This document shows, in pieces, positions 21,320-55,545 of a stretch of 64,000 nt of DNA. Origin of the DNA: an uncultured Gammaproteobacteria bacterium (GTDB taxonomy: Bacteria; Pseudomonadota; Gammaproteobacteria; Steroidobacterales; Rariloculaceae); assembly GCA_963810755.1 (NCBI GenBank), contig CAWEOP010000008.1, positions 648,631-712,630 on the forward strand. The letters run 5' to 3'. The notes under the pieces were generated by a model. That model was not told where the DNA came from and searched no databases. It saw only the letters and a list, made by a program, of their open reading frames with translations. Positions within the stretch are counted from its first letter, which is position 1; each line of letters starts with the position of its first letter. The position numbers and the translations under genes were made by a program.

Positions 21320-21650
21320 GCTATCGAGCCTCTGTCCAACAGTTCTCGCCAAATCGATGATCGCCGCCGAACGCGCGCGCCCGGCCGCAAACGATCTTAC
21401 GCAAGCGCGCCGGACATTGCCCTCGAGCCGAAGCGGAGGCGAGCGCCGAGACTCTCTCGCGTGCGGGACGGCGGTTCCGATATCGGGACGGTCGAACGTC
21501 CGAGGCGCGGGCGTTCCGCTGAGGCCTGTCCTGTAAATCAATCGGTTAGCCGGCCCGCAGCTTTGGCAAGATCGATGCATTGTGAAAGCCGAAGCGCGTT
21601 CGTGCGGTCCATGCGGAGCCCGCACTCGCGGCACGGCATAGGAGGACGAA

Positions 21651-24118: not shown

Positions 24119-24126
24119 ACAACCGC

Positions 24127-26632
24127 ATGAAGCTCAACGATCTCGTCGATTCCGTCGGTCGCGATCTGCGCCATTCGCTGCGCCGCCTCTGGCGGCGGCC
24201 CGCCTTCACGTTCGCCGCCGTGCTCACGCTCGCGCTCGGCATCGGCGCGACGGCCGCGATCTTCAGCGTCGTCTACTCGGTGCTGATCAAGCCGCTGCCG
24301 TACCCGAACGCCGACGAGCTCGTGAGGATCAGACATAGCGCTCGAGGCCAGCTGGGCGGGGCCGATTTCGATGCGACGATGTATCTCACGTATCGCGACG
24401 AGAACCGGACGTTTGCCAGCATCGGCCTGTGGCAGGACGCGTCGGCGACGCTGACCGACGGCGGGGAGCCGGAGCGGGTGCGCTCTCTGCGAGTCACGGA
24501 CGGCACGCTCCAAGCGCTCGGTGTGCAGCCGATGCGCGGACGGTGGTTCACGGAGCAGGAGCTCGAGGCCGGGACGCAAGGGCCCGCGCCGGTCATTCTC
24601 TCGCACGCGTTTTGGCAACGGCGATTCGGCGGCGACGAGACGGCTGTCGGGAGTCAGCTCTCGATCGATTCGCAACCGGCGCAAGTCGTCGGCATCATGC
24701 CGCCCGACTTCAGATTCCTCGACCACACGCCGCAGCCCGACCTGATTGTCGCGCTGCGGTTCGACCGTGCGGCGCTGCAGATCAACGGCGGCTTCAACTA
24801 TCAGGGGCTCGCGCGCCTCAAGCCCGGCGTCACGCCGGCCGAAGCGCGTGCCGACGCGGAGCGCGTGCTCGCGCTCTGGCCCGACGCCTGGCCGATCCGA
24901 ACCGATCTCGGGCTCACGCGCGAAGCCCTCGCGAGCACCCGCTTGACCCCCGTCATTCGGTCTTTGAAGGACGACGTGGTCGGCGGCGTTGCGGGCATGT
25001 TGTGGGTGCTCATGGGCGCGATCGGCGCCGTGCTTCTCGTCGCCTGCGCCAACATCGCGAATCTCATGCTCGTGCGAGCGGATGCGCGGCGGCAAGAGTT
25101 CGTCGTGCGCGCCGCGCTCGGGGCAGGGAGCGCGCGAATCGCGCGAGAGTTGCTCGTCGAGAGCTTCAGCTATCGGCGCAGCCGGCAGCGTGCTCGGTTT
25201 GGTGCTCGCTTACTTGGGGCTGCAGGTTCTCGTCGCCATCGGCCCGAGCAACCTGCCGCGCCTTCAGGAGATCGCGCTCTATCCGCCCGTGCTCGCTTTC
25301 ACGGTAGTCGTCTCGCTCGCGGCGACGCTGGTGTTCGGCTCGATCACGGCGCTCAAGCACGCGCTGCACATCGGCACCCCCATGACCCTCGGCGCTCGCG
25401 GCGCAACCGCGAGCCGCGAGCGGAACGCGACGCGGAGCGCTTTGGTCGTCGTGCAGGTCGCGCTCGCGCTCGTGTTGGTCGTGAGCGCGGCCCTCATGAT
25501 CCGAACGTTCCAGGCGCTGCGCGACGTCGACCCGGGTTTTTCGGATCCTGCGACGATTCAAACGGCGCATTTTTGGATTCCGAACGCCCTGCTTCCCGAC
25601 CCGCAAGCGTACACGCGCGTGCAGCACGAGATCCTCGACAAGATCGCGGCGCTTCCGGGTGTCGCGTCAGCCGCCTTTGCGAGCACCCTGCCGATGGAGT
25701 CGCCGCCGATCAGGCCGCCGATCGTGATCGAAGGACAGACGCTGCCGGCGGGACAGATGCCGGCGTTCCGCGGACACAAGTACGTCTCGCCGGGGTATTT
25801 CGAAGCGATGGGCACGCGGATCATTGCGGGACGCGACATTACCTGGAGCGACATCGAAACGGGCGGCCGCGTGGCCTTGATCTCCGAGGAGTTCGCTCGA
25901 GAGATCGCAGGAGAGCCCGCCGCCGCGCTCGGCAAACGCATCAAGACCTTCTTTCAGACGGATGCCTGGCGCGAGGTGATCGGCGTGGTGGAGAGCGTGC
26001 ACGAGGCCGGGCTGTACGAGGAAGCGTCGAGCTTCGTGTACTGGCCCGCGCTCGTGGCGGACATGTTCGGTTCCCCCGTGGTCGGAACTCCGTTTGCCGC
26101 GCTCGTGATCCGCAGCGACCGCGCGGGCGCTGCGAGCCTCATGGACGAGGTTCGGCAAGCGACGTGGTCGGTGAACGGGAGCGTTCCAATCACCCAGGAG
26201 CGCACCATGCAGGACGTGTACGCCGGCTCGCTCGCGCGCACGTCGTTCACGCTCGTGATGCTCGCGATCGCCGGCGGCATGGCGCTGCTGCTCGGCGTCA
26301 TCGGGATCTACGGCGTCGTCGCATACGTCGTCGCGCAGAGAACTCGGGAGATCGGTATTCGCTCGGCGCTCGGTGCCGAGCCGCGGCAACTCGAGAAGAT
26401 GTTTCTGCTGCACGGGCTCATGCTGAGCGGAGTGGGCGCTGTCGTGGGCCTCATCGCGGCGTTGGCATTGGGGCGCCTGATGTCGTCGCTGTTATTCGGC
26501 ATCGGCCCGATGGATCTCACCGCGTACGTGGTGGCGCTAGGCGTCACGATCGCGGCCGCGGCGCTCGCGAGCTACCTGCCCGCGAGGCGCGCGGCGACGA
26601 TCGATCCCATCGAGACGCTCAGGGCGGAGTAG
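24127..26632 (+). pseudogene. ADOP-type duplicated orphan FtsX permease; frame break near 25163-25172
   Basis: It starts 8 nt after the previous stop. DLRHSLRRLWRRPAFTFAAVLTLALGIGATAAIF is ADOP-like. ORFs 24127.. and 24989..26632 join at ...ARELLVES/..SAIGAAGSVLGLVLAY.... The C-terminus LPARRAATIDPIETLRAE is canonical. Confidence 0.8.
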
Positions 26633-29243: not shown

Positions 29244-29747
29244 GTGGGCGCATTCGCCGAATGGCTCTCCGGAACCAGCCCCAGCGTCGCGATTCAAACG
29301 ACCGCCTGGTTCATTCGCCTATTGCAAGCGACGCACTTGTTGACCGCCGGCGTGGTCGCCGTCTCCGGTCTGATGATTGCGCTTCGCGTGCTCGGTTGGC
29401 AGCGAGCGGACGTGCCCTTCGAAGCCGTCTGGGCGCGCTTCGCGCCGTGGCTCGGTTTGGGCCTGGCCGTCATGCTCTCGACCGGAATCGCCCAGACGCT
29501 CGGCGACCCCGTCCGCGAATTCACGGCCACTTCCTATTGGGTGAAGCTGGCGCTGGTTCTGAGCTGCGCAGCGGGAACGCTGTTGCTCGCCCGGTCCGCG
29601 CGGCGCGCGCCGTCCGCGGCTCGTTTCTCTTTCGTCGCGAAGCTCACGGCGGCGGGGCTCATCTGTTTCTGGCTCGCGATCGTGCTGCTCGGCCGCATGA
29701 TCGCTTACGACTCTGCGATCTGGGGCAGCTTGTCTCTGCGCACATGA
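29244..29747 (+). CDS. Membrane protein, unknown function (first of a coupled pair)
   Basis: GTG 29244 lies in frame with the tail of ORF 27825..29747. It has four hydrophobic segments (HLLTAGVVAVSGLMIAL, WLGLGLAVMLSTGIA, WVKLALVLSCAAGTLLLA, LTAAGLICFWLAIVLLG). The upstream part of that long ORF is antisense to the M20 gene. Confidence 0.6.
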   Translation: MGAFAEWLSGTSPSVAIQTTAWFIRLLQATHLLTAGVVAVSGLMIALRVLGWQRADVPFEAVWARFAPWLGLGLAVMLSTGIAQTLGDPVREFTATSYWVKLALVLSCAAGTLLLARSARRAPSAARFSFVAKLTAAGLICFWLAIVLLGRMIAYDSAIWGSLSLRT

Positions 29748-30283
29748 GCACGCAGGCCATCCTCGACGGCATCGAACGCTCCGCGCTGGCGGAGTGGATG
29801 CGGTACACGAATGGCGCCATGCCCGTCGTCGAGTCGACGCATGTGCTCGCGGCCGTCCTGCTGTTCGGCACGGTGCTGATCGTGGACATGCGCTTGCTGG
29901 GCCTCCTCGATTCGTCTCGAGCAGTCACGCGCGTGAGCCGCGAGACGCTGCCCCTGACCTGGCTAGCGTTCGGCGTCTCCGTGATCACGGGCTCGCTGAT
30001 GTTCACCACCAGCGCTCACACCTATTTCGCGAACACGGCGTTCCAGTGGAAGGCGCTCGCGCTCTTCGGCGCCGGTCTCAACATGGCGCTGTTTCAGCTG
30101 CTCACGGCCCGCAGCGTGCTCGCGTGGAATGTGAGCTCCGCAGTGCCGCGTGGGGCGCGCGTTGCAGGCCTCGCGTCATTGCTGCTTTGGGCCGCCGTGG
30201 TACTGCTCGGCCGCTGGATCGGGTTCACGAAGGGACACGATTTCACGATTCCCGCCGGCGTCGAGCTCGTGTTCCCCGGTTGA
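29744..30283 (+). CDS. Membrane protein, unknown function (second of a coupled pair)
   Basis: ATG 29744 overlaps the previous TGA (ATGA). It has four hydrophobic segments (HVLAAVLLFGTVLIV, LTWLAFGVSVITGSLMF, WKALALFGAGLNMALF, LASLLLWAAVVLLG). Confidence 0.65.
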   Translation: MSTQAILDGIERSALAEWMRYTNGAMPVVESTHVLAAVLLFGTVLIVDMRLLGLLDSSRAVTRVSRETLPLTWLAFGVSVITGSLMFTTSAHTYFANTAFQWKALALFGAGLNMALFQLLTARSVLAWNVSSAVPRGARVAGLASLLLWAAVVLLGRWIGFTKGHDFTIPAGVELVFPG

Positions 30284-30434: not shown

Positions 30435-30686
30435 GTGCCAAGGAAGACCAAGCTTGCCGTAGTGCCGGAGCCGCCCGCTGATGCGAGCGTGCTTCACCTC
30501 GAGAACGCTCCTTTTCTCAAGGGCCGCGAGAGCGAGAACCTGGTTTGCGGGAGCTGCGGCCTCGTGATCTGCAAAGGAGTCAGCGCCGAAAGCTGCATGG
30601 CCAAGTTTTCGGCACCGGCCCAGTTGCTCGTTAGATGTCCAAAGTGCGGCACTCACAATTTGCTCAACGCAAAGGTCGGCGACTGA
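30435..30686 (+). CDS. Small zinc-ribbon-like protein (hypothetical)
   Basis: 83-aa ORF with two CxxC pairs (CGSCG and CPKCG) about 38 residues apart. It has a GTG start and no recognised family. Confidence 0.4.
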   Translation: MPRKTKLAVVPEPPADASVLHLENAPFLKGRESENLVCGSCGLVICKGVSAESCMAKFSAPAQLLVRCPKCGTHNLLNAKVGD

Positions 30687-32070: not shown

Positions 32071-32973
32071 TCACTCCTTGAGTGGGAAGTAGTGATCGAC
32101 CCAGCTGCCCGCGGTGACTTTGAGCCCCTGCGGGAACACTTCGAAGGCGGGGAACTGCACACGCGACAGCGGCAGGCGCGGCACGTAGTGCGTGTAGATC
32201 CGTTGGCGCGCGGCGTTCACCTGCGGGAACACGTCGCCCTTGCGCACGACGTGGCGGAACACCGCGCAGGTCGCGGCCGGCAAGCTGCGCCGTTGCAACT
32301 CCGGAGGCGGCGAAGCGTCGGCTTGGACACGCAGCGCAGAGAGCGACTCGACGCCGCCATCGCGCGGGTCGAAGTTCAGCGTGACGGAATACGTGCTCGC
32401 ATCGAGCGCGCCGGGGAAGCCGCGCAGTGAATCCAGCCGCTGCCACGTCTGCGGCAACTCGTGCGGATTCGCGGGCGAGATGCGTCGGACCAGGCCCGCG
32501 AGATGCAGCTCCGGCACCTGTTCCACTCGCTCGTGGATTTCGGGCTCGCGCGGCGCGGACTTTTTCCGCCGCAGCACGCTCCGCACCGGTCCGAGGCTGC
32601 GCAGCCGGCCCGGCGGATGACCGAACGCACGCACGAACGCGCGCGTGAACGCTTCCTGGGAATCGAAGCCGCTGTCGAACGCCAGATCGACGATGCGCAG
32701 GCCGGGCTCCGCGAGCAGACGGCCGATGGCCGCTTCGAGGCGCCGCCCGCGCACGTAGGACATCACGCTCTCGCCTTGCAGCCGCGTGAAACCGCGCGAG
32801 AAGCGCGACGCAGAATAACCGGCGTGATCCGCGACGCTCTTGACCGTCATCGGCTCGAACAGGTGCGCCTCGATCCACGCGATGGCGGTGAGATGCGCGT
32901 GGATCAGCGCCGCTTCCTCCGAGCCATGCGGAGCGTCGGGCTCATTCGGGGGCGTGTGATCCTGCGACGACAT
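32071..32973 (-). CDS. AraC family regulator with GyrI-like effector domain
   Basis: The HTH blocks VKSVADHAGYSASRFSRGF and DLAFDSGFDSQEAFTRAFVRAFG are AraC-type. The C-terminal half looks like a GyrI/SOUL-type domain. Its stop lies 5 nt before the hydrolase start. Confidence 0.85.
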   Translation of the reverse strand: MSSQDHTPPNEPDAPHGSEEAALIHAHLTAIAWIEAHLFEPMTVKSVADHAGYSASRFSRGFTRLQGESVMSYVRGRRLEAAIGRLLAEPGLRIVDLAFDSGFDSQEAFTRAFVRAFGHPPGRLRSLGPVRSVLRRKKSAPREPEIHERVEQVPELHLAGLVRRISPANPHELPQTWQRLDSLRGFPGALDASTYSVTLNFDPRDGGVESLSALRVQADASPPPELQRRSLPAATCAVFRHVVRKGDVFPQVNAARQRIYTHYVPRLPLSRVQFPAFEVFPQGLKVTAGSWVDHYFPLKE

Positions 32974-33128
32974 GGGCCGTATCTTAGGCGGCCCGCGGCG
33001 GCTGTCTTGATCGATCCTGCTCGTGACGATTGACCGTCGTCAGGCGACGACATCGCTAGGGATTGCTACGAATGCTAGGAATCGGCAGCTTCGCTGCGCT
33101 TGAACACCGAATAGCGCAGAATACAGCC

Positions 33129-33674
33129 ATGGCGTCGTTGCAAATTCCAGTGACCAAGGCCGATCACGCGAAAGGCCGTCCAGACGCGCCGGTCACGCTC
33201 GTGGAGTACGGCGACTACGAGTGCCCGCACTGCGGTGCCGCTTATCCGGTGGTGCAGCAGCTGCAGAAGCGGTTCGGCGCCGATTTGCGTTTCGTCTATC
33301 GCAATTTCCCGCTCGGCGAAATCCACCCACACGCACTGAGTGCTGCGATGACGGCCGAGTTTGGCGCAACCCATGGACGCTTCTGGAACGTTCACGACGC
33401 CTTGTTCGAGAACCAGCAAAAGCTCGGTGCGGCGCTTTATCAAGCGATCGTCACCGAGCTCCAACTTGACGCCAAACAGTTGCGCGCCGCTCTCGAGGCC
33501 AATACCTACCTCGAAAGAGTCCGAGCCGATTTCAATGGCGGTGTGCGCAGCGGCGTGAACGGCACACCGTCGTTCTTCGTCAATGGTAAACGGTACGACG
33601 GTTCGCCGGATTTCGAGACCATGGCGGCTGTGCTCGGTGAAGCCATTCGAATGGCGAAGCCGCACGCACGCTAA
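33129..33674 (+). CDS. DsbA-like thioredoxin-fold protein
   Basis: VTLVEYGDYECPHCG contains the CxxC active site. NGTPSFFVNG is the cis-Pro loop region. There is no signal peptide from MASLQ. Confidence 0.85.
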   Translation: MASLQIPVTKADHAKGRPDAPVTLVEYGDYECPHCGAAYPVVQQLQKRFGADLRFVYRNFPLGEIHPHALSAAMTAEFGATHGRFWNVHDALFENQQKLGAALYQAIVTELQLDAKQLRAALEANTYLERVRADFNGGVRSGVNGTPSFFVNGKRYDGSPDFETMAAVLGEAIRMAKPHAR

Positions 33675-33706: not shown

Positions 33707-34160
33707 CTACTCGGGCTTCGCGGATTTCGATTCCGGTTCGTAGATCGGGGTAACGCCGGTAAACAAAGCGTTGCCGCCGCCATCCACGACGGTAAGCGCG
33801 TAAGCGATCGTCGGAAAGTTGCGTGCGCGCGCACCGGTCACCTTGACGACGTCGCCGGGCTTCAGCGAGTCCCGCTTCCATCCACGGCGCATCAAGGTGT
33901 TCGGGCTCGGCAGCTCGAAGTTCCAGTTGGCGGTTTCTCCGTTCTTGTCGGTCACGTCGACGTAGAGCCGGGCGTGCGGGCTTTTCCATTCGAGCGTGGT
34001 GACCTTGCCCTCGATCAGCTACTTTCAGCTCGAAATCGAATTCCGACTGCGAGTGATGGGCCGACGCGGGTGTGAGTACGAGACTGATGCCGGCGAGGAC
34101 CGGCAGTAGAGACAAACACCTCTGCATCGATAGCACGACTCGTGAAGTAGCTCCGTTCAT
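33707..34160 (-). pseudogene. D module D2 (DUF6152-like small exported protein); frame break near 34019-34024
   Basis: MNGATSRVVLSMQRCLSLLPVLAGISLVLTPASA|HHSQSEFDFELKV then shifts frame to LIEGKVTTLEWKSPHARLYVDVTDKNGETANWNFELPSPNTLMRRGWKRDSLKPGDVVKV.... ATG 34160 overlaps the P4 stop (ATGA). Confidence 0.7.
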
Positions 34161-44917: not shown

Positions 44918-45709
44918 TTCAAACCCCACTTTCGGAGACGCTCATGACCGCACTTCACGCGCGGCGCCGTCCCTGTCGCCGCATCCAACGATCTTTCCGT
45001 CGACGACGCTTCAATAGACGAGCTCGACCTCGAGATCCGCACGCTCACGCGCCAAATGAACGCCGAGACGTATCGGATGCTGATGTTGGTCCGCGCGTTC
45101 GACGACCGCTTCGGCTTCGCGAAATGGGGCCAGCGCAATTGCGCCGAGTGGCTCGCGTGGCGCTGCGGATTGTCGCTCTCCGCGGCCCGCGAGAAGGTGC
45201 GCACGGCGCAGGCGCTGCGCTCGCTGCCCGCGATCTCGGCCGCATGCGCGGACGGGCGCCTGTCGTACTCGAAGGTGCGCGCGCTCACGCGCGTCGCCGC
45301 GAATCACGACGAAGACTTGCTGCTCGCGTACGCGCTCGACGCGACGGCGAGCCAAGTCGAGGAGCGCTGCCGGCAGCTGCGCAACGCGGAGCCCGAATCC
45401 GTGCACGGCGCGCGGCACGTGTGGGAGCGGCGCTCGCTCGCGGTGTTTCGCGATCGCGCGCGCGGCTGCGTGCGGATCACCGTCGAGCTGCCCGAAGCCG
45501 ACGGCGAGCTCGTCGCGCGCGCGATCGAGCACGCGGTCGCGGCCGGCGACGCGGCGTTCGGCGTCGAGTTCGCCTCAAATCCCGAGCACTCGGCCGACGC
45601 GTGGCGCGCGCAGCAGGCGGACGCGCTCGTCGCGATCTCGAAGGCTTATCTCGGCGGCGGCAGCGGCGGCGTCCGGGCGGTCGGGAACGCGGGCGGCGAG
45701 GAGGGCGAG

Positions 45710-45723
45710 CCCTCCGCGGAGGG
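45710..45723. repeat. CCCTCCGCGGAGGG palindrome inside the HNH ORF (copy 1)
   Basis: Perfect 14-mer, read in frame as PSAEG (GEPSAEGDD). Confidence 0.85.
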
Positions 45724-45818
45724 CGATGACGCCGAGCCGGCGCGGCCGCGATCGGCGGCGGCTGCCGACCACTATCAGGTCGTCGTGCACGTCGACCGCT
45801 CCGCTCTCGAAGGAAAAT

Positions 45819-45832
45819 CCCTCCGCGGAGGG
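45819..45832. repeat. CCCTCCGCGGAGGG palindrome inside the HNH ORF (copy 2)
   Basis: Perfect 14-mer with the ggaaaat flank also seen at 40824. It is read in a different frame as SLRGG (EGKSLRGGAG). Confidence 0.85.
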
Positions 45833-46339
45833 GCGGGGCGATCCGATCTCCCGATCGAGACGGTGAGGCGCCTCTCGTGCGACGGCAGCGTCGTGACCGT
45901 CGTCGAGGACGAGCACGGCACGCCGCTCGACGTCGGCCGCAAGCAGCGCACGGTCGGGACGGCTTTGCGCCGCGCGCTCTGGTCGCGCGACCGCGGGTGC
46001 ACGTTTCCGGGGTGTCACAACACGCGCTACGTCGACGCGCATCACATCCATCACTGGGCGAACGGCGGCGAGACGAGCCTCGACAACACGACGCTGCTCT
46101 GCACGTATCACCACACGCTCGTGCACGAAGGCGGCGTCACGATGCATCGCGATGAGTGCGATGCGCTTTACTTCCGGCGCGCAGACGGGCGGGTGATTCC
46201 GCGCGGCGGGTATCGCGCCGAGGACATGATCGACGACGCGATCGGCGCGGACGGCGCCGAGTTCGATCCCGCGTCGGCGAGCGGGCGAATGATCGCGATC
46301 ATGCACGGCGTCGAGTACTGCGAGCACGACGGCGCGGAG

Positions 46340-46398
46340 CCCTCCGCGGAGGGCTGGATGCACGGATGTGGTGCGGAAAGTCCCTCCGCGGAGGTGCG
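46340..46398. repeat. Bipartite palindrome-bearing element inside the 3' end of the HNH ORF (copies 3 and 4)
   Basis: The sequence is CCCTCCGCGGAGGG-c-tggatgcacggatgtggtgcggaaagt-CCCTCCGCGGAGGtgc. It is collinear with 40790..40848 and is translated as AEPSAEGWMHGCGAESPSAEV. Confidence 0.8.
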
Positions 46399-46515
46399 GG
46401 AGACGCGGGGCGTGTACTTACTCGGGTGCCATTGATCCCACGGCCGAACCTGCGCGTGCACCCCGAGTGGTACTGGCGATAGACTGACCGCAGTGGTTGG
46501 TCACGGGAGAGGAGC

Positions 46516-46788
46516 ATGCCGAGATACGTCATCGAGCGCGAGATTCCGAATGCGGGCAAGCTCTCACCGGCTGAGCTCAAATCGATCTCGCAGAAGTCCT
46601 GCGGCGTCTTGAGCAAGCTCGGGCCGCAGATTCAGTGGGTTCAGAGCTACGTCACGAACGACAAGGTCTACTGCGTTTACATCGCTCCGAACGAGGAGAT
46701 GGTTCGCGAGCACGCGCGCCAAGGCGGCTTCCCGGCGAATAGCGTCGCGAAAGTCATGACCGTGATCGATCCGACGACGTCGGAATGA
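46516..46788 (+). CDS. DUF4242 domain protein
   Basis: GGGAGAGGAG lies upstream. MPRYVIEREIPNAGKLSPAELKSISQKSCGVL...VYCVYIAPNEEMVREHARQGGFPAN matches my recollection of DUF4242. Confidence 0.8.
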   Translation: MPRYVIEREIPNAGKLSPAELKSISQKSCGVLSKLGPQIQWVQSYVTNDKVYCVYIAPNEEMVREHARQGGFPANSVAKVMTVIDPTTSE

Positions 46789-46992: not shown

Positions 46993-48498
46993 ATGACGAC
47001 CAAAAGGTTGGTGCTTTTTGCTCTCGGCTGGCTGCTCGCGGGTTCCGCGGCCGCGCAGGACGCGCGCACGGTTCTGCAGGCCGCGGCCGATGCGATCGGC
47101 GCTCGCAACGTGCGATCGATCGAATACACGGGCGGCGGCTGGGTCGCGGCCGTCGGCCAGAGCTACACGCCGGAAGACGACTGGCCGCGGTTCGAGATGG
47201 TGAACTACTCCCGGACCATCGACTATCAGAACCGCTCGTCGCGAGAAGAGTACGTCCGCCGGCAAGGCGACTACGCGCCGCGCGGCGGTGGCGGCACTCC
47301 GCTGCAAGGCGAGCAGCCCCAACGCTTCTTCACGAGCGGCAACGCGAGCTGGAACATGAACGGAGCGCAGCCCGCGCCCGAGCCTGCCGCCGCTGAAGCG
47401 CGTCTGCTCGACATCTGGCTGTCGCCGCACGGTTTCATCAAGGCCGCTCTCGAGGCGGACGACGCAACGGCCGTGGAGCTCACGCTCGAAGGCAAGAAGC
47501 GGACGATCGTCTCGTTCACGGCGCTCGACAAGTACCGCGTGAACGGCACGATCACCGAGGACAACCTCGTCGAGCGCACGCAAACGTGGATCGCGAATCC
47601 CGTGCTCGGCGACGTGGTGTTCGATCACCGCTATTCGGACTACAAAGACTTCGGCGGCGTGAAGTTCCCGACGGTCCTGCACTCGCACCAGGGTGATCCG
47701 CGCGTGAACGCCGGGCACAACTGGAAAGAGGTTCGCGTCACCGCGGCGCGGGCCAACGTCGATGCGCCGAAACTAGCTGTGCCCGATAACGTGCGCTCGG
47801 CGAAGGTGCCGCCCGTCACCGTCGAGTCGAACGAGCTCGCGCGCGGAGTATGGCGCATCGCCGGCGGGTCGCATCACAGCGTGGCCGTCGAGTTTCGCGA
47901 CTTCGTCGCGGTCGTCGAAGCGCCGCTCGACGAGGCGCGCTCGCTGGCGGTGATTGCGGAAACGAAGCGGCTGATTCCGAACAAGCCGATTCGCTACATC
48001 GTGAACACGCATCACCACTTCGACCATTCGGGCGGTTTGCGCACGTTCGTCGCGCAGAGCGCGACGGTAGTCACGCACGAAGGCAACCGCGAGTTCTACG
48101 ACGACGTGGTTTTCCACCCGGGTGCGCGCACAGTCGAGCCCGACCTCCTGTCGAGCCGTTTGCCGTGGTTCGCGGGCAATCGCGTGCCGGCTTTCGAGAC
48201 GGTGAGCAATAAATATGTGATCAGCGACGGCCAGCGGACGCTCGATCTCTACGCGCTAACTGGCGTGCCGCACTCCGGCACGATGCTCGTCGCGTATCTG
48301 CCGACCGAGAAGATCCTGATCAACGCGGACCTGTACTCGCCGCCCGCGCCCGGCGCTCAGCCGCCGGCCGCGAACGCGAACATCCGCGCGCTGAACGAGA
48401 ACATCCGGAGGTTGGGCCTCGACGTGGAGCGGCACGTCGGCATCCACGGCCAGGTCGCGCCGAATGCGGACTTCCTGAAGATTTTGAGCGGTAGCTGA
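46993..48498 (+). CDS. Exported metallo-beta-lactamase-fold hydrolase with N-terminal extra domain
   Basis: Signal MTTKRLVLFALGWLLAGSAAAQ. YIVNTHHHFDHSGG is the HxHxDH zinc motif. Confidence 0.85.
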   Translation: MTTKRLVLFALGWLLAGSAAAQDARTVLQAAADAIGARNVRSIEYTGGGWVAAVGQSYTPEDDWPRFEMVNYSRTIDYQNRSSREEYVRRQGDYAPRGGGGTPLQGEQPQRFFTSGNASWNMNGAQPAPEPAAAEARLLDIWLSPHGFIKAALEADDATAVELTLEGKKRTIVSFTALDKYRVNGTITEDNLVERTQTWIANPVLGDVVFDHRYSDYKDFGGVKFPTVLHSHQGDPRVNAGHNWKEVRVTAARANVDAPKLAVPDNVRSAKVPPVTVESNELARGVWRIAGGSHHSVAVEFRDFVAVVEAPLDEARSLAVIAETKRLIPNKPIRYIVNTHHHFDHSGGLRTFVAQSATVVTHEGNREFYDDVVFHPGARTVEPDLLSSRLPWFAGNRVPAFETVSNKYVISDGQRTLDLYALTGVPHSGTMLVAYLPTEKILINADLYSPPAPGAQPPAANANIRALNENIRRLGLDVERHVGIHGQVAPNADFLKILSGS

Positions 48499-48511: not shown

Positions 48512-49440
48512 ATGCTGAAGCCCACCGTACTCACCGCCTGCGCTCTCGTTCTACTCGCGATCGCCGATCCCGGCCGCGCCCAGGCAGCCCTTTGCCAACG
48601 TGACGCCGGACATGATCCGCACTTCGTTGCCGGTCGAAGGCGCGCCGCTCGCCGAGAAGGGCGCTTACGAGGTCACTTCCGAGCCCACGTTCGGCGTGCC
48701 CGGCCACGTGATCGTGCGCCCGGCGAATCTCGACGCGTTCCCGAAGAAGGACACGCTGCCCGTCATCGCGTGGGGCAACGGCGGCTGCGCGATCGACAGC
48801 AAGAGCTTCATGGGTTTCATGCAGACGGTGGCTTCGCACGGCTTCCTCGTGATCGGCACGGCGCCGATCGAAGGTGCGGCGCAGCGGCGAGCGAACGTCG
48901 ACGACCTGCGCAGCGCGATCGATTGGGCGGACAAGGAGAACGCGCGCGACGGGTCGCCGCTCAAGGGCAAGATCGCGACTGGACAAAGTGGCCGCGATGG
49001 GCAGTTCGTGCGGCGGCTTTCTCTCGATCGAGGTGGGCGCCGACCCGCGCGTCAAGACGATCGGCGTGTTCAACTCGGGCGTGATTCACCTCGACCCGAA
49101 GAATCCGCCGCCGTTTCCGATCCCGGACGTCGCGACGCTCGCGAAGCTGCACGGACCCGTGCTGCTCGTGAACGGCCACGACACCGATTTCATGATGGCG
49201 ACGTCGAGAGCCACCTACGATTCGCTCGAAAAGAAAGCAGCTTTCTACGGCTCGCGCCACGGTGCGGGGCACAGCGCCACGTTCTTCCACCCGGGCGGCG
49301 GCGAGTTTGCGAACGTCGCGTGGAGCTGGGCGGCATGGCAGCTCAAGGGCGACAAGAAGGCGGGCGCGATGTTCGTCGGTAAGGACTGCGGGCTCTGCAA
49401 GAATCCGAGCTGGGACGTGGAGTCGAAGGGTCTCAAGTAG
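48512..49440 (+). pseudogene. Exported alpha/beta hydrolase (dienelactone-hydrolase-like); two frame breaks near 48586-48594 and 48972-48984
   Basis: Three ORF pieces join. Piece 1 is the signal MLKPTVLTACALVLLAIADPGRAQA. Piece 2 is FANVTPDMIRTSLPVEG...PVIAWGNGGCAIDS...PLKGKI. Piece 3 is LDKVAAMGSSCGGFLSIEVG...LLVNGHDTD...HGAGHSATF, which includes the GxSxG-type nucleophile elbow G-S-S-C-G. Confidence 0.7.
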
Positions 49441-49451
49441 CAGCGCTGGAC

Positions 49452-49480
49452 GCGCCGGACGTCTCGTCGACGTCCGGCGC
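49452..49480. terminator. GC-rich hairpin between convergent genes
   Basis: GCGCCGGACGTC-tcgtc-GACGTCCGGCGC forms a perfect 12-bp stem. It lies between the stops at 49440 (+) and 49504 (-). There is no U-tract. Confidence 0.45.
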
Positions 49481-49503
49481 CCGCAAACTGGCAGTGGCAG
49501 ATC

Positions 49504-51297
49504 CTAGTGGCGAATCTGCGAAGCGATGTCCTCTAGCTCGTAGACTTCGCAGTTACCGCGCTCCGCACCGATCAGGCCCGGGCGGCCGAAGCCCGGAGTG
49601 GCGGCGGCGCCGGTAGTACGCAGCATCGGGTTGAGCGTCCAGGGCTGGAGGAGCACGTCGGGATCCTCCACCGTGACCTCGTAGAGCATCTGGTCACCCT
49701 GCCGCTTGAAGCGTTCCGTGACCTTCATCTTCTCGGAGTGAAAGAAGCCGCCGCGCGCCAGCCAGGTTGCCGGCGTAATGCCGAGCGATTCGATCACGAG
49801 CGTGTCGCCGTCCCAGCGGCCGTAGGAATGACCCGTGTACTTGACCTGGCGGAGCTGCTGTTCGTCCGGCTTGACGCCATCGGTCGCGACCACGCGGAAG
49901 TCCGAGTACCCGCCGCCGCCATCGCCGCCGTTGCCATAGAGGAGGGTGATGTCGGCGTCGGTCTGGAAGATACGGCCCGGCGGTCCTTGCCGCGGAACTC
50001 CCATCGGCTGACAGGTCATGATCGGGTCTTCGCGGTTCGTCCACATGTCCTTATAGACGACCTCGTCCCAGTGCTCGGGCTTGTAGAGCGGGCGGTTCGG
50101 CCCGTAGCGTGAAGCCGCCTCGAACTCGAAATCGAGTGTCTGATTCCACGCCGGGCTGCAGCCTTCGAGCTGTTCCGGTGCGCAGCGGCGGTTGCCATAG
50201 CGCCAGATGAAGAACTTGTTGCCGCCGGTCCAGGCACCCGTGAGGTCGGGTTTGCCGTTGGCCAACCGCGGCGTCGGGGCGGTGGAATCGAGCACGGGCG
50301 CCTTCTGGTCGGTGCCGTACATCTCCACCGGCTCCGGGTCACGGCCGCTCACGCTCTTCGGCACCGGCACGACGACGTAGACACTGCCCGTCTCCGTCTG
50401 CTTCGTGGTGAGCTCGCGTACGACTTTGCCGTTCTTGCTCTCCGTCATCTTGCCGGCCATCAAGACTTCGATCCGGTTGAGCTCGTTGTTGTAGTCGTTG
50501 TAGTCGCTGTAGGTGAACTCGTAGGTGTCGCGTCCGTACGTGACGCGAACGGATTTGGTCATGAAGCGCTCGTCGAGCTGGGCAACGGCCTTTGCGCCGT
50601 CGACGCCCGGAATCGGGAACGTGATGATCGGCGTACTACCTTCCCAGGCCACCGACGTGTCACCGATCTTCGGGGTTCCTGCCTCGAGCAGCTCGCCCGG
50701 ATTGCGCCACACTTTTCGCAGGGGGATGCCGGCGCCCGCCAGCGCGGCCTTGGGTGCGCCCTGTGGGCTCGCCCAGAGGCGGATCAAACGCTCGGCAACG
50801 GCGTTCGGCATCGGCTTGGCCGTGCCTTTGCCCGGCTCGAGACCGGCGCCCCGGATGTCCTCATCCCAAGCGTACTTGCCGCTGACGACCTCGATATTGG
50901 AATACGTCTGACCGTTCGGCAGCGCACATTTGATCTCGGTGCGGTAGCCGGGTTGTTGGTAGCTAGCGTCGTAGCGGTATCCCGACGTGCCGAGCTCGCC
51001 CTCCCTGCTGCCCTCCTTGAACGGCGTGAGCGTGCAGGCCCGGCCGTTGACCTGGATCGTGCCTTCAGCCCGGTACTGGAGCGAGACCATGAGCTCGTGC
51101 TCCTCGATGCCGCGCAGCATGCCCATGTGCCACGGCCAGTTGAACAGCACCGACTTCAAGTCCTTGGCGCCGGGCTCGGGGTTATAGACGGCGGGCGGCG
51201 GGCCGCCAAACTGGGCGACTGCCGCGAACGATACCGTGATAGCGATGGCTATCCCGATAGCGCTCGACTTCTTAATAGTCCCCTTGTCGAAGGTCAT
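49504..51297 (-). CDS. Exported P-family paralog P5, long form with about 340-aa extra N-terminal domain
   Basis: GGGGGAG lies upstream of the ATG pair at 51303/51297. The TM/signal segment is SSAIGIAIAITVSFAAVAQ. The C-terminal half carries GKPDLTGAW, MTCQPMGVP, GRWDGDTLVIES, YEVTVEDPDVLLQPW and NCEVYE. Confidence 0.85.
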   Translation of the reverse strand: MTFDKGTIKKSSAIGIAIAITVSFAAVAQFGGPPPAVYNPEPGAKDLKSVLFNWPWHMGMLRGIEEHELMVSLQYRAEGTIQVNGRACTLTPFKEGSREGELGTSGYRYDASYQQPGYRTEIKCALPNGQTYSNIEVVSGKYAWDEDIRGAGLEPGKGTAKPMPNAVAERLIRLWASPQGAPKAALAGAGIPLRKVWRNPGELLEAGTPKIGDTSVAWEGSTPIITFPIPGVDGAKAVAQLDERFMTKSVRVTYGRDTYEFTYSDYNDYNNELNRIEVLMAGKMTESKNGKVVRELTTKQTETGSVYVVVPVPKSVSGRDPEPVEMYGTDQKAPVLDSTAPTPRLANGKPDLTGAWTGGNKFFIWRYGNRRCAPEQLEGCSPAWNQTLDFEFEAASRYGPNRPLYKPEHWDEVVYKDMWTNREDPIMTCQPMGVPRQGPPGRIFQTDADITLLYGNGGDGGGGYSDFRVVATDGVKPDEQQLRQVKYTGHSYGRWDGDTLVIESLGITPATWLARGGFFHSEKMKVTERFKRQGDQMLYEVTVEDPDVLLQPWTLNPMLRTTGAAATPGFGRPGLIGAERGNCEVYELEDIASQIRH

Positions 51298-51431
51298 GAT
51301 CATCTCCCCCAAAGTCCGATTCCTGCTCGAGCGCAATCGTGGCCGATATGGGGAGAAATGCCAATCCTTTGGGGGCGGCAATCGCCGGGAAGGCCGTGCT
51401 AATGTCATTGCGCATCAAGAGGGGGGTACAT

Positions 51432-51803
51432 ATGAGAGCTCGGCCTATTCTCGTCGCGGCGCTGCTGACGGCGACGTCCGCCCTGGCGCACCACAGCAAC
51501 TCGGCGTTCGACCCAGAGAAGGTGGTCGTGCTCAAAGGCACGGTCACGCAATGGCTGTGGACGAACCCGCACGTGTGGATTCATCTCGCGGTCGACGATG
51601 GCAATGGCGGCAAGACCGAGTGGCAGATCGAGGGCCGCCCGCCCGGCGTGTTGGCTCGTTCCGGCTGGTCGAGGACGATCTTCAAGCCCGGTGACACGAT
51701 CACAGTCGATTTCAGCCCGGCGCGGGACGGCAGCCACACGGGTCTCGCCACACGCGTCACGCTCGCCGATGGCACCGTGCTCGGACAGGCCTCCCCGCAA
51801 TAG
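51432..51803 (+). CDS. D module D3 (DUF6152-like small exported protein)
   Basis: AGAGGGGGG lies 5 nt upstream of the ATG. The sequence is MRARPILVAALLTATSALA|HHSNSAFDPEKVVVLKGTVTQWLWTNPHVWIHLAV...RSGWSRTIFKPGDTITVDF. Confidence 0.8.
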   Translation: MRARPILVAALLTATSALAHHSNSAFDPEKVVVLKGTVTQWLWTNPHVWIHLAVDDGNGGKTEWQIEGRPPGVLARSGWSRTIFKPGDTITVDFSPARDGSHTGLATRVTLADGTVLGQASPQ

Positions 51804-51825
51804 CTCGCGGGTGAGGGAGGACATC

Positions 51826-52587
51826 ATGTCGAAGACCACTGGATTACTGTCCGTCGTGCTCGTGTGTCTGCTGCTGGGAGCGACGCTGTCCGTTCGCTCG
51901 CAGGAGACCGCGGCTCGTCCGGACTTCTCGGGCGTGTATTTCCCGTTCAACCCGAACGCCGCGCCTGCCGCACCGCGCGGGGCGGGCACGCCGCCGCGAC
52001 CCGTCGCCGTGATCGACGGGCGTGCGGGCCGGCCCGACACCGCGCCCAAGCTCAAGCCCGAATACTTGGCCAAGTGGGAGGAGATGCGGAAGTCGCGAAT
52101 GGCGGGATCGTCCGAGACCGATCCGAATGCCAACTGCCTCTCCGCCGGCATGCCCGGAATGATGTCGATGACCTACGGCATGGAGCTCAACCACACGAAG
52201 GACAAGATCACCATCTACGGCGAGCTCAACGACGTGTATCGACGCATTTACCTCGACGGCCGCAAGCCGCAACCGCGCACACTCGACGATCCGACGTTCG
52301 CGGGCTACTCCGTGGGGCATTGGGAAGGGGACACGCTCGTCGTCGAAACGCAAGCGATACGCGAGGACACGCTGCTCGACCTGTTCTCGCCGCACAGCGA
52401 TCAGCTCACCGTGCAGGAGCGGATCAGATTCACAGAGCCCGGCGTCCTCGAGGACCGTCTTACGGCAAGCGACCCGAAGGCGTTGACCGAACCCTTCACG
52501 CAGATTCGTACCTATCGGAAAGCGTCGCCCCCGAACGACGAGCTGCGTGAGTTCTCGTGTGCGGAGGGGCTTTCGTCGGTGAAGTGA
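51826..52587 (+). CDS. Exported P-family paralog P6 (uncharacterised)
   Basis: GGGAGG lies upstream of ATG 51826. Signal MSKTTGLLSVVLVCLLLGATLSVRSQ. Motifs present: RPDFSGVY, NCLSAGMPGMM, YLDGRKPQ, GHWEGDTLVVETQ, LTASDPKALTEPF and EFSCAEG. Confidence 0.85.
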   Translation: MSKTTGLLSVVLVCLLLGATLSVRSQETAARPDFSGVYFPFNPNAAPAAPRGAGTPPRPVAVIDGRAGRPDTAPKLKPEYLAKWEEMRKSRMAGSSETDPNANCLSAGMPGMMSMTYGMELNHTKDKITIYGELNDVYRRIYLDGRKPQPRTLDDPTFAGYSVGHWEGDTLVVETQAIREDTLLDLFSPHSDQLTVQERIRFTEPGVLEDRLTASDPKALTEPFTQIRTYRKASPPNDELREFSCAEGLSSVK

Positions 52588-52630
52588 GAATCGCGATTTT
52601 TCGACTGTCGAACGCCGGGAGACTAGCGAC

Positions 52631-53017
52631 ATGAATTGCAGATCGATACGCAACGCGTGGTTCTGCGCGTTGAGCGCATTGATGTGGGCGACCACGGTCT
52701 TTGCGCATCACTCCGGCGCGATGTTCGACGACACGCAAATGCGGTCGCTGTCTGGAACGGTGCGCGAGTTCCAATGGCACAACCCGCATTGCTACATCCA
52801 GCTGATGGTGCCATCGGCCACGGGAGGCCCTGACGAGGAATGGAGTCTGGAAATGGCCGCGCCAATGTACCTCTACAACTTGGGCTGGCGCCCCTCGACG
52901 CTCAAACCGGGTGACCGAATCACCGTGAAGATCTCGCCGCTGCGCAAAGGTGACAGAGGAGGGCTTGTTTCGGAGGCGGCAACGGCCGATGGCAATCCGA
53001 TCGGGAGAAAACCATGA
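52631..53017 (+). CDS. D module D4 (DUF6152-like small exported protein)
   Basis: The sequence is MNCRSIRNAWFCALSALMWATTVFA|HHSGAMFDDTQMRSLSGTVREFQWHNPHCYIQLMV...NLGWRPSTLKPGDRITVKI. Confidence 0.8.
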   Translation: MNCRSIRNAWFCALSALMWATTVFAHHSGAMFDDTQMRSLSGTVREFQWHNPHCYIQLMVPSATGGPDEEWSLEMAAPMYLYNLGWRPSTLKPGDRITVKISPLRKGDRGGLVSEAATADGNPIGRKP

Positions 53018-53802
53018 ACGCTGCGCGCCACGGCTTGCGTATCGGTCTGCTGTGTTCCGTGCTCGGCCTGGCCGCGTGCTCTGCGAAGGAGACGGATCCA
53101 CGCGTCGCAAAGTTTGCGCAACTACCGGATTGGAGCGGAATCTGGGTCTCGGCAGAACCCATCGGGAAAATCGGTATCAGTGGCTATCCCGAGATGGAAG
53201 ACCCATTCAACGATTGGAAAATACTGGGCTTCAGCGCCCCATACAACGAGGCCGGCAAGGCTGCACTCGGACAGTTCATGGCGCAAGCCGAGCTCGCAAA
53301 GGCAGAGAAGTCGACTTCGGGTTGGAGTTTTCCACAGATGATGGAAGCGCCGACACCGCTGCAGTTTACGATCACCCCGGACGAGACGCTGATCGTCAAC
53401 TTTTACCGCGATGTTCGCCATGTCTACACCGACGGACGCGACCATCCAGCGGAGCAGGATCGCTGGCCCACGCCCTGGGGAGACTCAGTGGGCCACTGGG
53501 AGGGCGATACGCTCGTGATCGACACGCTGGCCATCCAGCGACTTGCCATCGGCCTTCCTCTTCCCCCCTTCTCGGAGCAAGCGCGCTACGTCGAGCGCCT
53601 GCGCAAGACCACTCCCGATCGCATTGAATCGGAGGTTACGGTCACCGACCCGGCCACGCTCACTGAGCCATGGGTCATCAACCTCGCATACAAGCGCGCG
53701 CCGATGATGGATCGCATGTTCCACAATCTATTCGACAACGATCGCGACAGCATCAGCGGCGATACATTCACGATCGATCCGCCGAAATCCGCGAGTCCCT
53801 AA
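53014..53802 (+). CDS. P-family paralog P7, lipoprotein form
   Basis: The ATG overlaps the D4 stop (ATGA 53014-53017). The lipobox is LGLAAC. Motifs present: PDWSGIW, YTDGRDHP, GHWEGDTLVIDT and VTVTDPATLTEPW. Confidence 0.8.
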   Translation: MNAARHGLRIGLLCSVLGLAACSAKETDPRVAKFAQLPDWSGIWVSAEPIGKIGISGYPEMEDPFNDWKILGFSAPYNEAGKAALGQFMAQAELAKAEKSTSGWSFPQMMEAPTPLQFTITPDETLIVNFYRDVRHVYTDGRDHPAEQDRWPTPWGDSVGHWEGDTLVIDTLAIQRLAIGLPLPPFSEQARYVERLRKTTPDRIESEVTVTDPATLTEPWVINLAYKRAPMMDRMFHNLFDNDRDSISGDTFTIDPPKSASP

Positions 53803-53817
53803 GACACGCACGGCGGC

Positions 53818-55545
53818 TCACGCCTTTAGCACTCCCGCGTCGTGAACCACCTTGCCGCCGACGAGCGTGAGCACTGCGCGGATCTTGCGGATGTCCGCGT
53901 CGGGTACCGTGAAGAAGTCGCGATCGAGCACCGCGAGGTCCGCGAGCTTGCCGGGCTCGATCGAGCCGACCTTGTCTTCCATCCGCAGGAACCAGCTGTT
54001 CGAGCGCGTGAACAGCGAGAGCGCCTCTTCGCGCGTGAGCTGCTGGCCGGGGTTCACCGGCATGCCGAACGAGTTGAGCCCCGTCGTCGCGTAGTGGATG
54101 TGCGGCCACGGGTTCAGCGGCGCGATGTGCACGCCGTCGCCGTGGATGCCGGCCTGCACGCCGTGGTCGACGATCGTGCGGAACTGGGGACCTACGACCT
54201 GGTTCGGATCGCTCGACGTGACCCAGCGGAACGCCGCCATCTCGACGCCGCAGCCGAGCGCCTTCAAGCGCGACAAAAGATCCGGCGTCACCTCGGGCAC
54301 GTGATGCACGACCCAGCGCAGATCCTTGATGCCGAATTCCTGGTCCATCTTCTCGTAGGCGTCGACCACCTGCGTGAGCCCCGCGAGGTTCTGCACGCTG
54401 TTCTCGTTGCGCCACTGCTTCGCGGCGACGAGGCGCTGTGCCTCGAGCCAGGTGGCGCCGGCCGACAGCGGCGCCGCCCATTCGCCGATGGCGCCCGTTT
54501 GCACCATGTCGTCGCCGAAGAACTGGAACTGGTTCCGAAGCCGCTCGTGCAGCTCGGGCAGCGCGGGATCGTTCTGGTTGCTCAAGAAATTGATCTGGAG
54601 CCGCACGGTGGCGCGGCCCTCGCGGTGCAGTGCGAGCCACGGGTCGTACATCGTGTACTGATCGAGATTCGAGAGGATCTGCGACGGGTGCAGCGGGCCC
54701 GGCGTCGGGAACAGCACCTGATCGAGGTGCGTCGTGAGGCCGACGCTCGTCGAATAGTTCATCGCGTCGAGCGTGCTGCGCGTGCGGTCCGCGAACGTCT
54801 GCATCCGGCGCAACAGAAACAGCGCCGACGCGGACGGACCGCCCATGCCGAAGCCGGCCGCGCCGATGGCGCCCGTGTCGCTGACGTTGATCTTCACGAT
54901 CGCGGGATGCGCGGGCTCCGCCGCATCGGCCTCGTCGAAGAATTTCTTCGCGAGGCTGTTGACGGCGCACGGGCCCGTGAAGCGCTCGTACAGGAACACG
55001 GGCCGGTCGGGGACGGCCTCGTCGAGCTCCGCGAGCGTCGGATGGCGGTGCTCGGCCCACTGGTTCGGGTGCCAGCCGCCCATCGACGTGATCCATTGGC
55101 CGTCGGGCACGTCCTTGCGCCGCGCGGCGAGAGTTTCCTGCACCTCGCGGATCGACGTCGTGTTCTCGAGGATCGTGTGGAAGCCCGGGCGGTTCGCGAG
55201 GCTCACGCTGTGGATGTGCGGCTCGACGAGCCCGGGCACCACCGTGCGGCCGCCGAGATCGATGACGCGCGCGCCGGCCGGTGCCGGTCCGCCTCCGACG
55301 GCCGCAAACACGCCGTTGCGGATCACGACGCTGTCCGCCACGGTGCCGCGGCCGTCGATCGTGTGGATGCGTCCGTTGACGAGCGCGACGACGGAATCCG
55401 CGCCGGGTCCCGTCGCGGGCGTCGACGTCGGAGCAGGGGCGGGCGGAGCGCACGCGGATCCCGCGATCGCCGTCGCGCCCGCCGCGCCCAAGGTTTTGAG
55501 AAATCCGCGCCGCGATCGGCGATCGCGATCGTCAGTGTCGCTCAT
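53818..55545 (-). CDS. Tat-exported amidohydrolase-family (Amidohydro_3/YtcJ-like) metal hydrolase
   Basis: MSDTDDRDRRSRRGFLKTLGAAGATAIAGSACA is a Tat signal. VVPGLVEPHIHS is the HxH metal motif. I took the start at 55545; the ORF-track maximum is 55752. Confidence 0.85.
   Translation of the reverse strand: MSDTDDRDRRSRRGFLKTLGAAGATAIAGSACAPPAPAPTSTPATGPGADSVVALVNGRIHTIDGRGTVADSVVIRNGVFAAVGGGPAPAGARVIDLGGRTVVPGLVEPHIHSVSLANRPGFHTILENTTSIREVQETLAARRKDVPDGQWITSMGGWHPNQWAEHRHPTLAELDEAVPDRPVFLYERFTGPCAVNSLAKKFFDEADAAEPAHPAIVKINVSDTGAIGAAGFGMGGPSASALFLLRRMQTFADRTRSTLDAMNYSTSVGLTTHLDQVLFPTPGPLHPSQILSNLDQYTMYDPWLALHREGRATVRLQINFLSNQNDPALPELHERLRNQFQFFGDDMVQTGAIGEWAAPLSAGATWLEAQRLVAAKQWRNENSVQNLAGLTQVVDAYEKMDQEFGIKDLRWVVHHVPEVTPDLLSRLKALGCGVEMAAFRWVTSSDPNQVVGPQFRTIVDHGVQAGIHGDGVHIAPLNPWPHIHYATTGLNSFGMPVNPGQQLTREEALSLFTRSNSWFLRMEDKVGSIEPGKLADLAVLDRDFFTVPDADIRKIRAVLTLVGGKVVHDAGVLKA

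Follow-up and report, generated by a model that had tools for sequence, protein, structure and literature searches.

At positions 49504-53802 of a 64,000-nucleotide (nt) stretch of DNA from an uncultured Gammaproteobacteria bacterium of the Rariloculaceae (the whole stretch is referred to as the window), five genes encode only two types of protein: D, which belongs to Pfam family DUF6152 (PF19649), and P, a second type without catalogued family. An earlier reading made from the letters alone (the sequence-only reading) had described these five genes and two protein types and had proposed that they form an undescribed periplasmic two-component system. All of the open reading frames (ORFs) were found where it had placed them, and the five cassette genes (D3, P6, D4, P7 and P5) are intact. 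Using tblastn of the five cassette proteins against the window, we located further copies, giving four D genes and seven P genes in 64 kb, one natural D-P fusion included (Table 1).

The stop codon of D3 and the start codon of P6 are separated by 22 nt (CTCGCGGGTGAGGGAGGACATC, which includes GAGGGAGG), and a spacing of ~23 nt recurs in the orthologous loci L001-L003 (names of this kind denote loci taken from other genomes or metagenomes for comparison). The stop of D4 and the start of P7 share ATGA (53014-53017), and this 4-nt overlap is kept by an orthologous pair on another contig, L164. Both junctions look translationally coupled, as had been suggested, and both are conserved in orthologues. 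Signal peptides and the P7 lipobox are seen in the translations of the cassette genes, in agreement with the earlier view that both protein types are exported.

The longest of the five, P5, carries in front of its P domain an N-terminal domain of ~340 amino acids (aa) without Pfam match. This domain (50278-51297, minus strand) is weakly similar to the N-terminus of a metallo-beta-lactamase (MBL)-fold protein encoded nearby (46993-47850, plus strand; pairwise BLASTP E 0.002), and the two proteins may share an uncatalogued exported domain.

Table 1 Positions in the window of the D, P and DUF6644 genes and of the element upstream of D3.
Feature	Position	Strand	Description
D3	51432..51803	+	Exported DUF6152 protein, 123 aa; predicted mature N-terminus HHS; Pfam PF19649 E 2e-33
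P6	51826..52587	+	Exported P-family protein, 253 aa; without Pfam, NCBIfam or PDB match
D4	52631..53017	+	Exported DUF6152 protein, 128 aa; Pfam PF19649 E 6e-28
P7	53014..53802	+	P-family lipoprotein, lipobox LAAC, 262 aa
P5	49504..51297/51303	-	Exported protein, 597-599 aa; C-terminal P domain (tblastn and hidden Markov model); divergent from D3
Conserved ~35-nt element	51393..51431	+	Directly upstream of D3; TGCTAATGTCATtGCGC..GGAGG..ATG
P1	352..1416	+	Solitary P protein of the long type; start codon uncertain; M16 peptidase gene downstream
D1-P3	16155..17260	-	Natural fusion of DUF6152 domain and P domain, without second signal peptide between
P2	17374..18375	-	Long-type P protein, 333 aa; directly upstream of D1-P3
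D2	33707..34160	-	DUF6152 gene, frameshifted
P4	34157..34990	-	P-family protein; stop overlaps D2 start as ATGA, 34157-34160
DUF6644 pair	29244-29747 and 29744-30283	+	Four-helix membrane proteins; Pfam PF20349 E 8e-8 and 1e-10

D and P are genetically coupled, sometimes fused and co-diversifying

Comparison with other genomes showed that D and P are exported proteins that are genetically coupled, sometimes fused into one chain, and co-diversify across phyla. A scan with the D profile, taking one genome per species, yielded 80 loci, to which three P-centred loci were added for the adjacency count. Among the 127 D domains of those loci, 100 (79%) had a P on the same strand within 500 nt; P lay downstream in 73 cases and upstream in 48, and some D were flanked by P on both sides. 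Random placement of D inside the same P-rich loci gave an adjacency of 11%, with a maximum of 20% over 200 trials. In 80 P-centred metagenome loci, an adjacent D was present at 25 of the 66 P domains with enough flank (38%), and 55% of the loci contained a D. D-P was also present in cultured members of the Sphingomonadales: in Croceibacterium atlanticum, genes for a TonB-dependent receptor and a MarR regulator come after D-D-P, and Novosphingobium humi has the gene order hypothetical-P-D-TetR.

The two domains also occur as one protein. Homologues of the window's D1-P3 fusion comprised more than 110 full-length proteins of ~345 aa, 51-95% identical, which came from numerous independent data sets and all carried DUF6152 as their N-terminal domain. 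An independent, unrelated D-P fusion was found in a metagenome-assembled genome (MAG) of the Bryobacterales (L048), and P0363 represents a P6-type fusion. Two further candidates were discarded: P0080 proved to be a frameshifted mis-call, and a read-through in L058 was left uncounted, since its P keeps its own signal peptide. Moreover, in a mirror-tree comparison of 97 D-to-P pairs, D-D and P-P identities were correlated with r = 0.85, a value partly confounded by shared phylogeny; at D identities below 60% the correlation was r = 0.58, against a permutation maximum of 0.08. The AlphaFold2 (AF2) model of the fusion (339 residues, 134 sequences) had a mean predicted local distance difference test score (pLDDT) of 92.8, a predicted template-modelling score (pTM) of 0.88 and a well ordered inter-domain region; as a pTM of 0.88 for a two-domain chain of 339 residues is taken to indicate confident relative placement, the model implies that the D and P domains are confidently positioned with respect to each other.

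One could suppose that D and P are merely two abundant exported families thrown together by chance where genes for exported proteins are densely packed in islands, and multi-copy clustering does raise chance adjacency, to the 11% obtained by random placement. Against the 79% observed, the conserved junctions, the more than 110 fusions, the co-diversification and the confident, compact fold of the fusion, such a coincidence is extremely improbable, and in our view the fusions and the adjacency counts effectively refute it. Whether their genes are adjacent or joined, D and P very probably function as a single unit. The sequence-only reading had named three outcomes that would speak against it, namely a characterised family for P, no enrichment of adjacency and no confident interface; what was found is the reverse on every count, P being uncharacterised, adjacency enriched and a confident D-P packing predicted in the natural fusion.

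The further proposal that the D-P unit of the cassette had been duplicated in place was not borne out. D3 shares 41% identity with D4, and P6 about 29% with P7; the D3-P6 and D4-P7 units have no DNA repeat in common beyond chance matches of 16-17 nt. In blastn comparisons with the fetched loci, D3-P6 orthologues showed 72-87% nt identity over the full unit, with a sharp onset at 51393-51400 and an end at 52571-52590, and the D4-P7 orthologue in L164 covered 52588-53798 only and stood there unaccompanied. Each of the two units has orthologues at 83-90% nt identity that stand by themselves in other contexts. Given the low identity between the units, the lack of a DNA repeat and these separate occurrences, we conclude that the two cassettes are old paralogues that merely happen to adjoin. 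Orthologous cassettes at 75-83% nt identity were present in MAGs that carry an Acidobacteriota label, and L004, the closest locus, has the label Gammaproteobacteria, which hints either at horizontal transfer of self-contained cassettes or at a binning or labelling artefact.

Both cassettes have a short conserved upstream element, the nt similarity taking in ~35-43 nt upstream. When the upstream regions of 10 orthologous loci were aligned, conservation was confined to the element directly in front of D3 (Table 1), which from its letters resembles an extended -10 box together with a ribosome-binding site and had no Rfam match. A palindrome upstream of D3 (AATGTCATT) was considered as an operator and rejected, as orthologues do not keep it. 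Scans of 49300-54000 for promoters, terminators, Rfam families and repeats gave nothing above chance save inverted matches at the segment coding for GHWEGDTLV.

Families, predicted folds and the second partner of D

The resemblance of D to DUF6152 noted in the sequence-only reading was confirmed: D3 and D4 scored 114.7 and 97.2 bits against a Pfam gathering threshold of 27, covering model positions 5-97 of 98, and all 120 best D profile matches listed carry PF19649. Conservation was assessed in 130 D sequences of other genomes from several phyla. Ala occupies position -1 in 93% of them; in the mature protein as predicted, His1 and His2 are 98% conserved and the Asn-Pro-His at the start of strand 2 (whose His is His28) 97-99%, and on strand 3 a Glu is kept in 99% and a Trp in 92%. 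The C-terminus is not conserved. His1, His2 and Pro-His are retained even in a distant subfamily of D that pairs with the membrane protein DUF6644. The motifs that had been listed for D (W-x-N-P-H and others) and for P are real, being conserved across these 130 D sequences and across 129 P sequences from other genomes.

The AF2 model of mature D3 (pLDDT 90.7), together with Foldseek, describes D as a small five-stranded oligonucleotide/oligosaccharide-binding (OB) barrel whose strands 3 and 4 are separated by a helix. The best structural matches of D3 were Rim1, a single-stranded DNA-binding (SSB) protein (E 2e-4, template-modelling score (TM) 0.61), and LysRS; those of the D domain in the fusion model were the LysRS anticodon-binding domain, RPA and OBody. 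The haem chaperone CcmE (1LM0) appeared at rank 44 among the D3 matches, with a TM of 0.52. Searches of D against the PDB by sequence and by profile returned noise only.

Consistently with the earlier statement that P belongs to no named family, P5, P6 and P7 matched no Pfam or NCBIfam model, 20 diverse P proteins had no Pfam match even at E <= 5, and searches against the PDB by sequence and by profile returned only noise. The family is nevertheless very large. P6 had 4552 word-indexed homologues, the best 120 listed being all hypothetical or unnamed, and an exhaustive search of the P profile against 1.84 billion cluster representatives (50% identity) returned 19,959 at E <= 1e-3 and 11,819 at E <= 1e-10; among the profile matches were P-P tandem proteins and one protein in which a glyoxalase/VOC domain is fused to P. 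In Foldseek, the C-terminal ~180 residues of P aligned with CRABP2, FABP4 and LBP-8 (E ~1e-3, TM to target 0.52-0.57), a resemblance at the level of fold only, so that the modelled P resembles a calycin or fatty acid-binding protein (FABP)-like up-and-down antiparallel barrel of ten strands. The N-terminal ~100 residues are extra to the barrel and bear the PD(L/F)xGxW motif. A Foldseek search against viral structures was uninformative.

Among the 129 P sequences (numbering of P6), the conserved residues comprise Cys104 and Cys245, which probably form a disulfide, Glu133, Arg139, Asp144-Gly-Arg146, Glu198-Arg199, Asp216-Pro217 and the block G-x-S-x-G-H-W-E-G-D-T-L-V. His190 and Ser191 are conserved in 76% and 82%. 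A link of His190 to D was considered, as it is kept in 79% of D-adjacent P and in 6 of 16 solitary P, and was dropped because the window's own P copies go against the pattern.

P is not the only partner of D. DUF6644, a four-helix membrane protein of ~160 aa, occurs in metagenomic operons of the form P-D-DUF6644-DUF6644 (L116, L144, L157, L105 and L001); in L111 and on a Novosphingobium humi plasmid it is oriented divergently to D or P. Where complete replicons come from cultured bacteria, one DUF6644 gene stands immediately after D, overlapping it or at a gap of <=55 nt, and P is absent; such tight pairs were found in Paracoccus denitrificans PD1222 (PDEN_RS23965/23970), P. versutus, P. ferrooxidans, Sinorhizobium meliloti (beside betA), Rhizobium lentis, several Azospirillum species, Comamonas antarctica and Cupriavidus campinensis. 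Thus the proposed periplasmic system stood as a linked module and fell as a strictly two-component one, since D also pairs with DUF6644. In the membrane protein, a single His of the first helix is invariant, and the last helix carries a GRWI motif. DUF6644 weakly matches Pfam DUF2214 (E 7.6e-4 and 1.5e-3), the name that NCBI gives to some of its members; DUF2214 probably belongs to the CopD-like clan. A relationship of DUF6644 to CopD, YebZ and PcoD did not reach significance in two hhalign comparisons, which gave probabilities of 0.2% with YebZ as the only target and 1.4% with an alignment of five CopD sequences. Full-text literature searches gave no paper on DUF6152, PF19649 or DUF6644, none on a histidine brace in an OB fold or on a periplasmic OB-fold copper protein with N-terminal His, and nothing relevant on DUF2214.

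Candidate function and comparison with known systems

The invariant His pair at the predicted mature N-terminus of D recalls the histidine brace, which is defined by a mature N-terminal His, contributing its amino group and imidazole, and a second His in a T-shaped arrangement, and is known from the families LPMO, pMMO, CopC, PmoF1, YcnI and X325 (PMC10952591). D has the mature N-terminal His at the sequence level only (Ala at -1, 93%; His at +1, 98%), and at that level His2 and His28, conserved in 98-99%, are candidates for the second His. No Pfam, NCBIfam or PDB sequence match linked D to LPMO AA9-17, PmoB, CopC, PmoF1/PCuAC, YcnI/DUF1775 or X325. None of the brace families named above is known to have an OB fold. 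Like the lytic polysaccharide monooxygenases (LPMOs) and other brace oxidases, D has a signal peptide followed by an invariant His, and a further invariant His with nearby aromatic residues; unlike LPMOs, it has another fold and no carbohydrate-binding context.

The closest analogy is with CopC-CopD and YcnI-YcnJ, in which, as in D-DUF6644, a small exported protein with a predicted mature N-terminal His is encoded immediately upstream of, and in many cases overlapping, the gene of a His-bearing polytopic membrane protein. In contrast, CopC and YcnI are Ig-like beta-sandwiches whereas D is predicted to be an OB fold with a second invariant His at position 2; the Cop and Ycn systems have no counterpart of the P barrel, D and CopC share no sequence or profile similarity, that between DUF6644 and CopD was not significant, and no copper genes lie near D. 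By analogy, the D-P-DUF6644 system would work most like CopC-CopD or YcnI-YcnJ, while its fold and the profile comparisons place it outside those families. CusF, CcmE and YgiW-BOF share with D the small periplasmic five-stranded OB barrel, but D lacks the Met-Met-His-Trp site of CusF, and it differs from CcmE in that the match is of low rank, the C-terminus is not conserved and no ccm genes lie near D. On the side of P, the calycins (FABP, CRABP2, lipocalins and nitrobindin) have an up-and-down antiparallel barrel that its modelled C-terminal region resembles at the level of fold; P differs in being exported, in its predicted disulfide, in its additional N-terminus of ~100 residues and in its OB-domain partner or fusion, and no Pfam signature of the lipocalin, FABP or nitrobindin family was found in it. 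We know of no system that joins an OB-fold protein with N-terminal His, a calycin barrel and a four-helix membrane protein. D-P-DUF6644 is thus far from every known kind, though it may yet prove to be a novel version of periplasmic metallochaperone systems.

Of the possible functions we tentatively favour a metal-dependent binding or redox module that acts on small organic ligands in the periplasm, a proposal built on conserved residues and gene context that we regard as possible without calling it probable. D and P would be the two halves of one extracytoplasmic unit, produced from coupled genes or, where fused, as one chain. Signal peptidase would cut after the conserved Ala and expose His1-His2 of D, which with the Asn-Pro-His of strand 2 and the Glu of strand 3 might build a mononuclear metal site; copper in a histidine-brace-like hold is the leading candidate, favoured because the amino terminus of D would be free. 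P would provide a pocket whose walls bear conserved Arg, Glu and Asp residues along with a Trp; its ligand would be a small organic molecule, probably hydrophobic or anionic, and specificity would come from the many diverged P paralogues. In some lineages, DUF6644 may tie D to the inner membrane for the supply of metal or electrons. The organic nature of the ligand is suggested by the FABP-like fold of P, by the ligand-type regulators that adjoin the genes and by pyrroloquinoline quinone (PQQ)-dependent dehydrogenases, whose genes immediately precede D or P in the same orientation, at gaps of 42-213 nt, in L002/L003, L016, L055 and L072; these four independent contexts hint at a link to periplasmic redox enzymes.

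Several observations weigh against this proposal. P is frequently found without D, and D occurs without P in Alpha- and Betaproteobacteria, so the two are not strictly obligate partners. The 130 D sequences have no conserved Cys or Met, and the 129 P sequences no obvious metal-binding motif or conserved cluster of metal ligands. D had no match to the Pfam family CusF_Ec at E <= 0.1, and CusF was absent from its 50 best Foldseek matches; the structural matches of both proteins are altogether weak (E about 1e-3 to 2e-4, TM 0.5-0.6). In the neighbour surveys, no canonical copper, zinc or iron homeostasis gene recurred near the module, and the adjoining regulators include MarR, TetR, AraC/GyrI and LysR types, which tells against the metal in particular.

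If D were instead a periplasmic metallochaperone exchanging metal with a CopD- or YcnJ-like DUF6644, P would supply its clients or adaptors. Metal trafficking of this kind would account for the tight D-DUF6644 pairs of cultured bacteria and the P-D-DUF6644-DUF6644 operons, and it draws on the single invariant His in the first helix of DUF6644, on the weak DUF2214 matches, on a gene order identical to that of CopC-CopD and on the precedent of copper exchange between YcnI and YcnJ (PMC12154828). We nevertheless find it doubtful, given that the profile comparisons of DUF6644 with CopD, YebZ and PcoD were not significant, that neither CopA, CopB, Cus nor a metal-sensing regulator recurs among the neighbours, that P has no conserved metal-ligand cluster, and that four D and seven P in 64 kb, with arrays of up to seven elsewhere, would be unusual for a metal chaperone. 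A further alternative is a carrier that needs no metal, in which P would bind hydrophobic compounds (lipids, quinones, xenobiotics or antibiotics) and D would dock the loaded barrel on membrane or outer-membrane partners, its His residues serving for binding or pH sensing. The FABP/CRABP-like fold, the size and diversification of the P family (19,959 clusters), its often solitary members, the lipoprotein P7 and the TonB-dependent receptors, MacB/FtsX permeases and ligand-sensing regulators among the neighbours all agree with such a carrier; since it leaves unexplained both the 97-99% invariance of His-His, Pro-His and Glu in D across phyla and the pairing of D with DUF6644 in the absence of P, we consider it rather unlikely.

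Haem handling, with D as a CcmE-like OB chaperone, P as a nitrobindin-like barrel for haem or another tetrapyrrole and DUF6644 ligating haem through its first-helix His, could be read from the presence of CcmE among the structural matches of D, the ten-strand FABP-like barrel of P and the sole invariant transmembrane His of DUF6644. The CcmE match, however, is no better than those of generic OB domains, D has no CcmE-type C-terminal haem-binding tail, His190 of P is conserved in 76% only, and genes for haem biosynthesis, haem uptake or cytochrome maturation do not recur among the neighbours, which makes this very unlikely. A bolder form of the metal-dependent module would make DUF6152 a new OB-fold class of histidine-brace copper proteins docked on the mouth of the P barrel, forming a hitherto unrecognised and very large family of periplasmic copper oxygenases or peroxygenases for small hydrophobic or aromatic molecules, with the centre re-reduced or metallated via DUF6644. 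We hold this to be improbable; if true, soil Acidobacteriota and Proteobacteria would contain thousands of substrate-specific variants of an unassayed enzyme type.

The links of D with P, seen in fusion, adjacency, co-diversification and predicted structure, and of D with DUF6644 turn three orphan families into one testable system, one of which, P, is a very large family without Pfam model, solved relative or paper. The invariant N-terminal His-His on a predicted OB fold suggests a metal centre of a new kind, and the system is abundant in the soil phylum Acidobacteriota. As it also occurs in tractable organisms, namely P. denitrificans PD1222 and S. meliloti for D-DUF6644 and N. humi and C. 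atlanticum for D-P, genetics and biochemistry are feasible now.

Neighbouring genes, frameshifts and the surroundings of further copies

All-against-all clustering of neighbours identified no gene other than P as a general neighbour of D. The second-largest neighbour cluster was discarded because it consisted of antisense shadow ORFs of D and P. Most other recurrent neighbours (Ldh_2, two SnoaL-like genes, an SGL lactonase and a PEP-mutase-like gene) trace to one syntenic Acidobacteriota block, which continues with D-P arrays and then a cytochrome-c/beta-propeller protein (L026, L033, L035, L036, L039, L043, L051, L057, L070 and L079); they are therefore not independent. Other neighbours were TonB-dependent receptors and MacB/FtsX permeases. 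The sequence-only reading had noted exported hydrolases on either side of the cassette. Pfam identified the MBL-fold protein and an amidohydrolase with an RR motif, and an ORF similar to alpha/beta hydrolases is present at 48512-49440, as had been reported, though it reads through intact only after correction of two frameshifts; in other genomes, these hydrolases are not conserved partners.

The hydrolase orthologue in L004, the closest locus, is frameshifted too, at a different position. Frameshifts also affect D2 (near 34018-34030), of which orthologues such as P0129 are intact, and the window copy of D1-P3, where an indel lies in the signal-peptide region (~17170-17180) and the ortholog P0241 has an intact N-terminus. 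Because the closest relatives are MFD-series MAGs with long contigs, the frameshifts in D2, D1-P3 and the hydrolase ORF are probably long-read assembly indel errors and not marks of pseudogenes.

The window's DUF6644 pair is 3.4 kb away from D2/P4 and is directly followed by a gene (30435-30686, plus strand) for an 83-aa protein with two CxxC pairs and zinc-ribbon matches. D2/P4 itself adjoins genes for an AraC/GyrI-like regulator (32071-32973, minus strand) and a DsbA-like thioredoxin (33063-33674, plus strand), the latter of which may be relevant to the conserved disulfide predicted in P. Beside P2 and D1-P3 stand three consecutive large genes for MacB_PCD/FtsX-type permeases (18509-20581, 21642-24338 and 24968-26632, plus strand), and the same neighbourhood recurs beside the fusion orthologue in L165. 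Just upstream of the MBL-fold gene, the window encodes a DUF222/HNH endonuclease (45056-46435, plus strand) and a small SCO4226-like ('nickel responsive') protein (46516-46788, plus strand).

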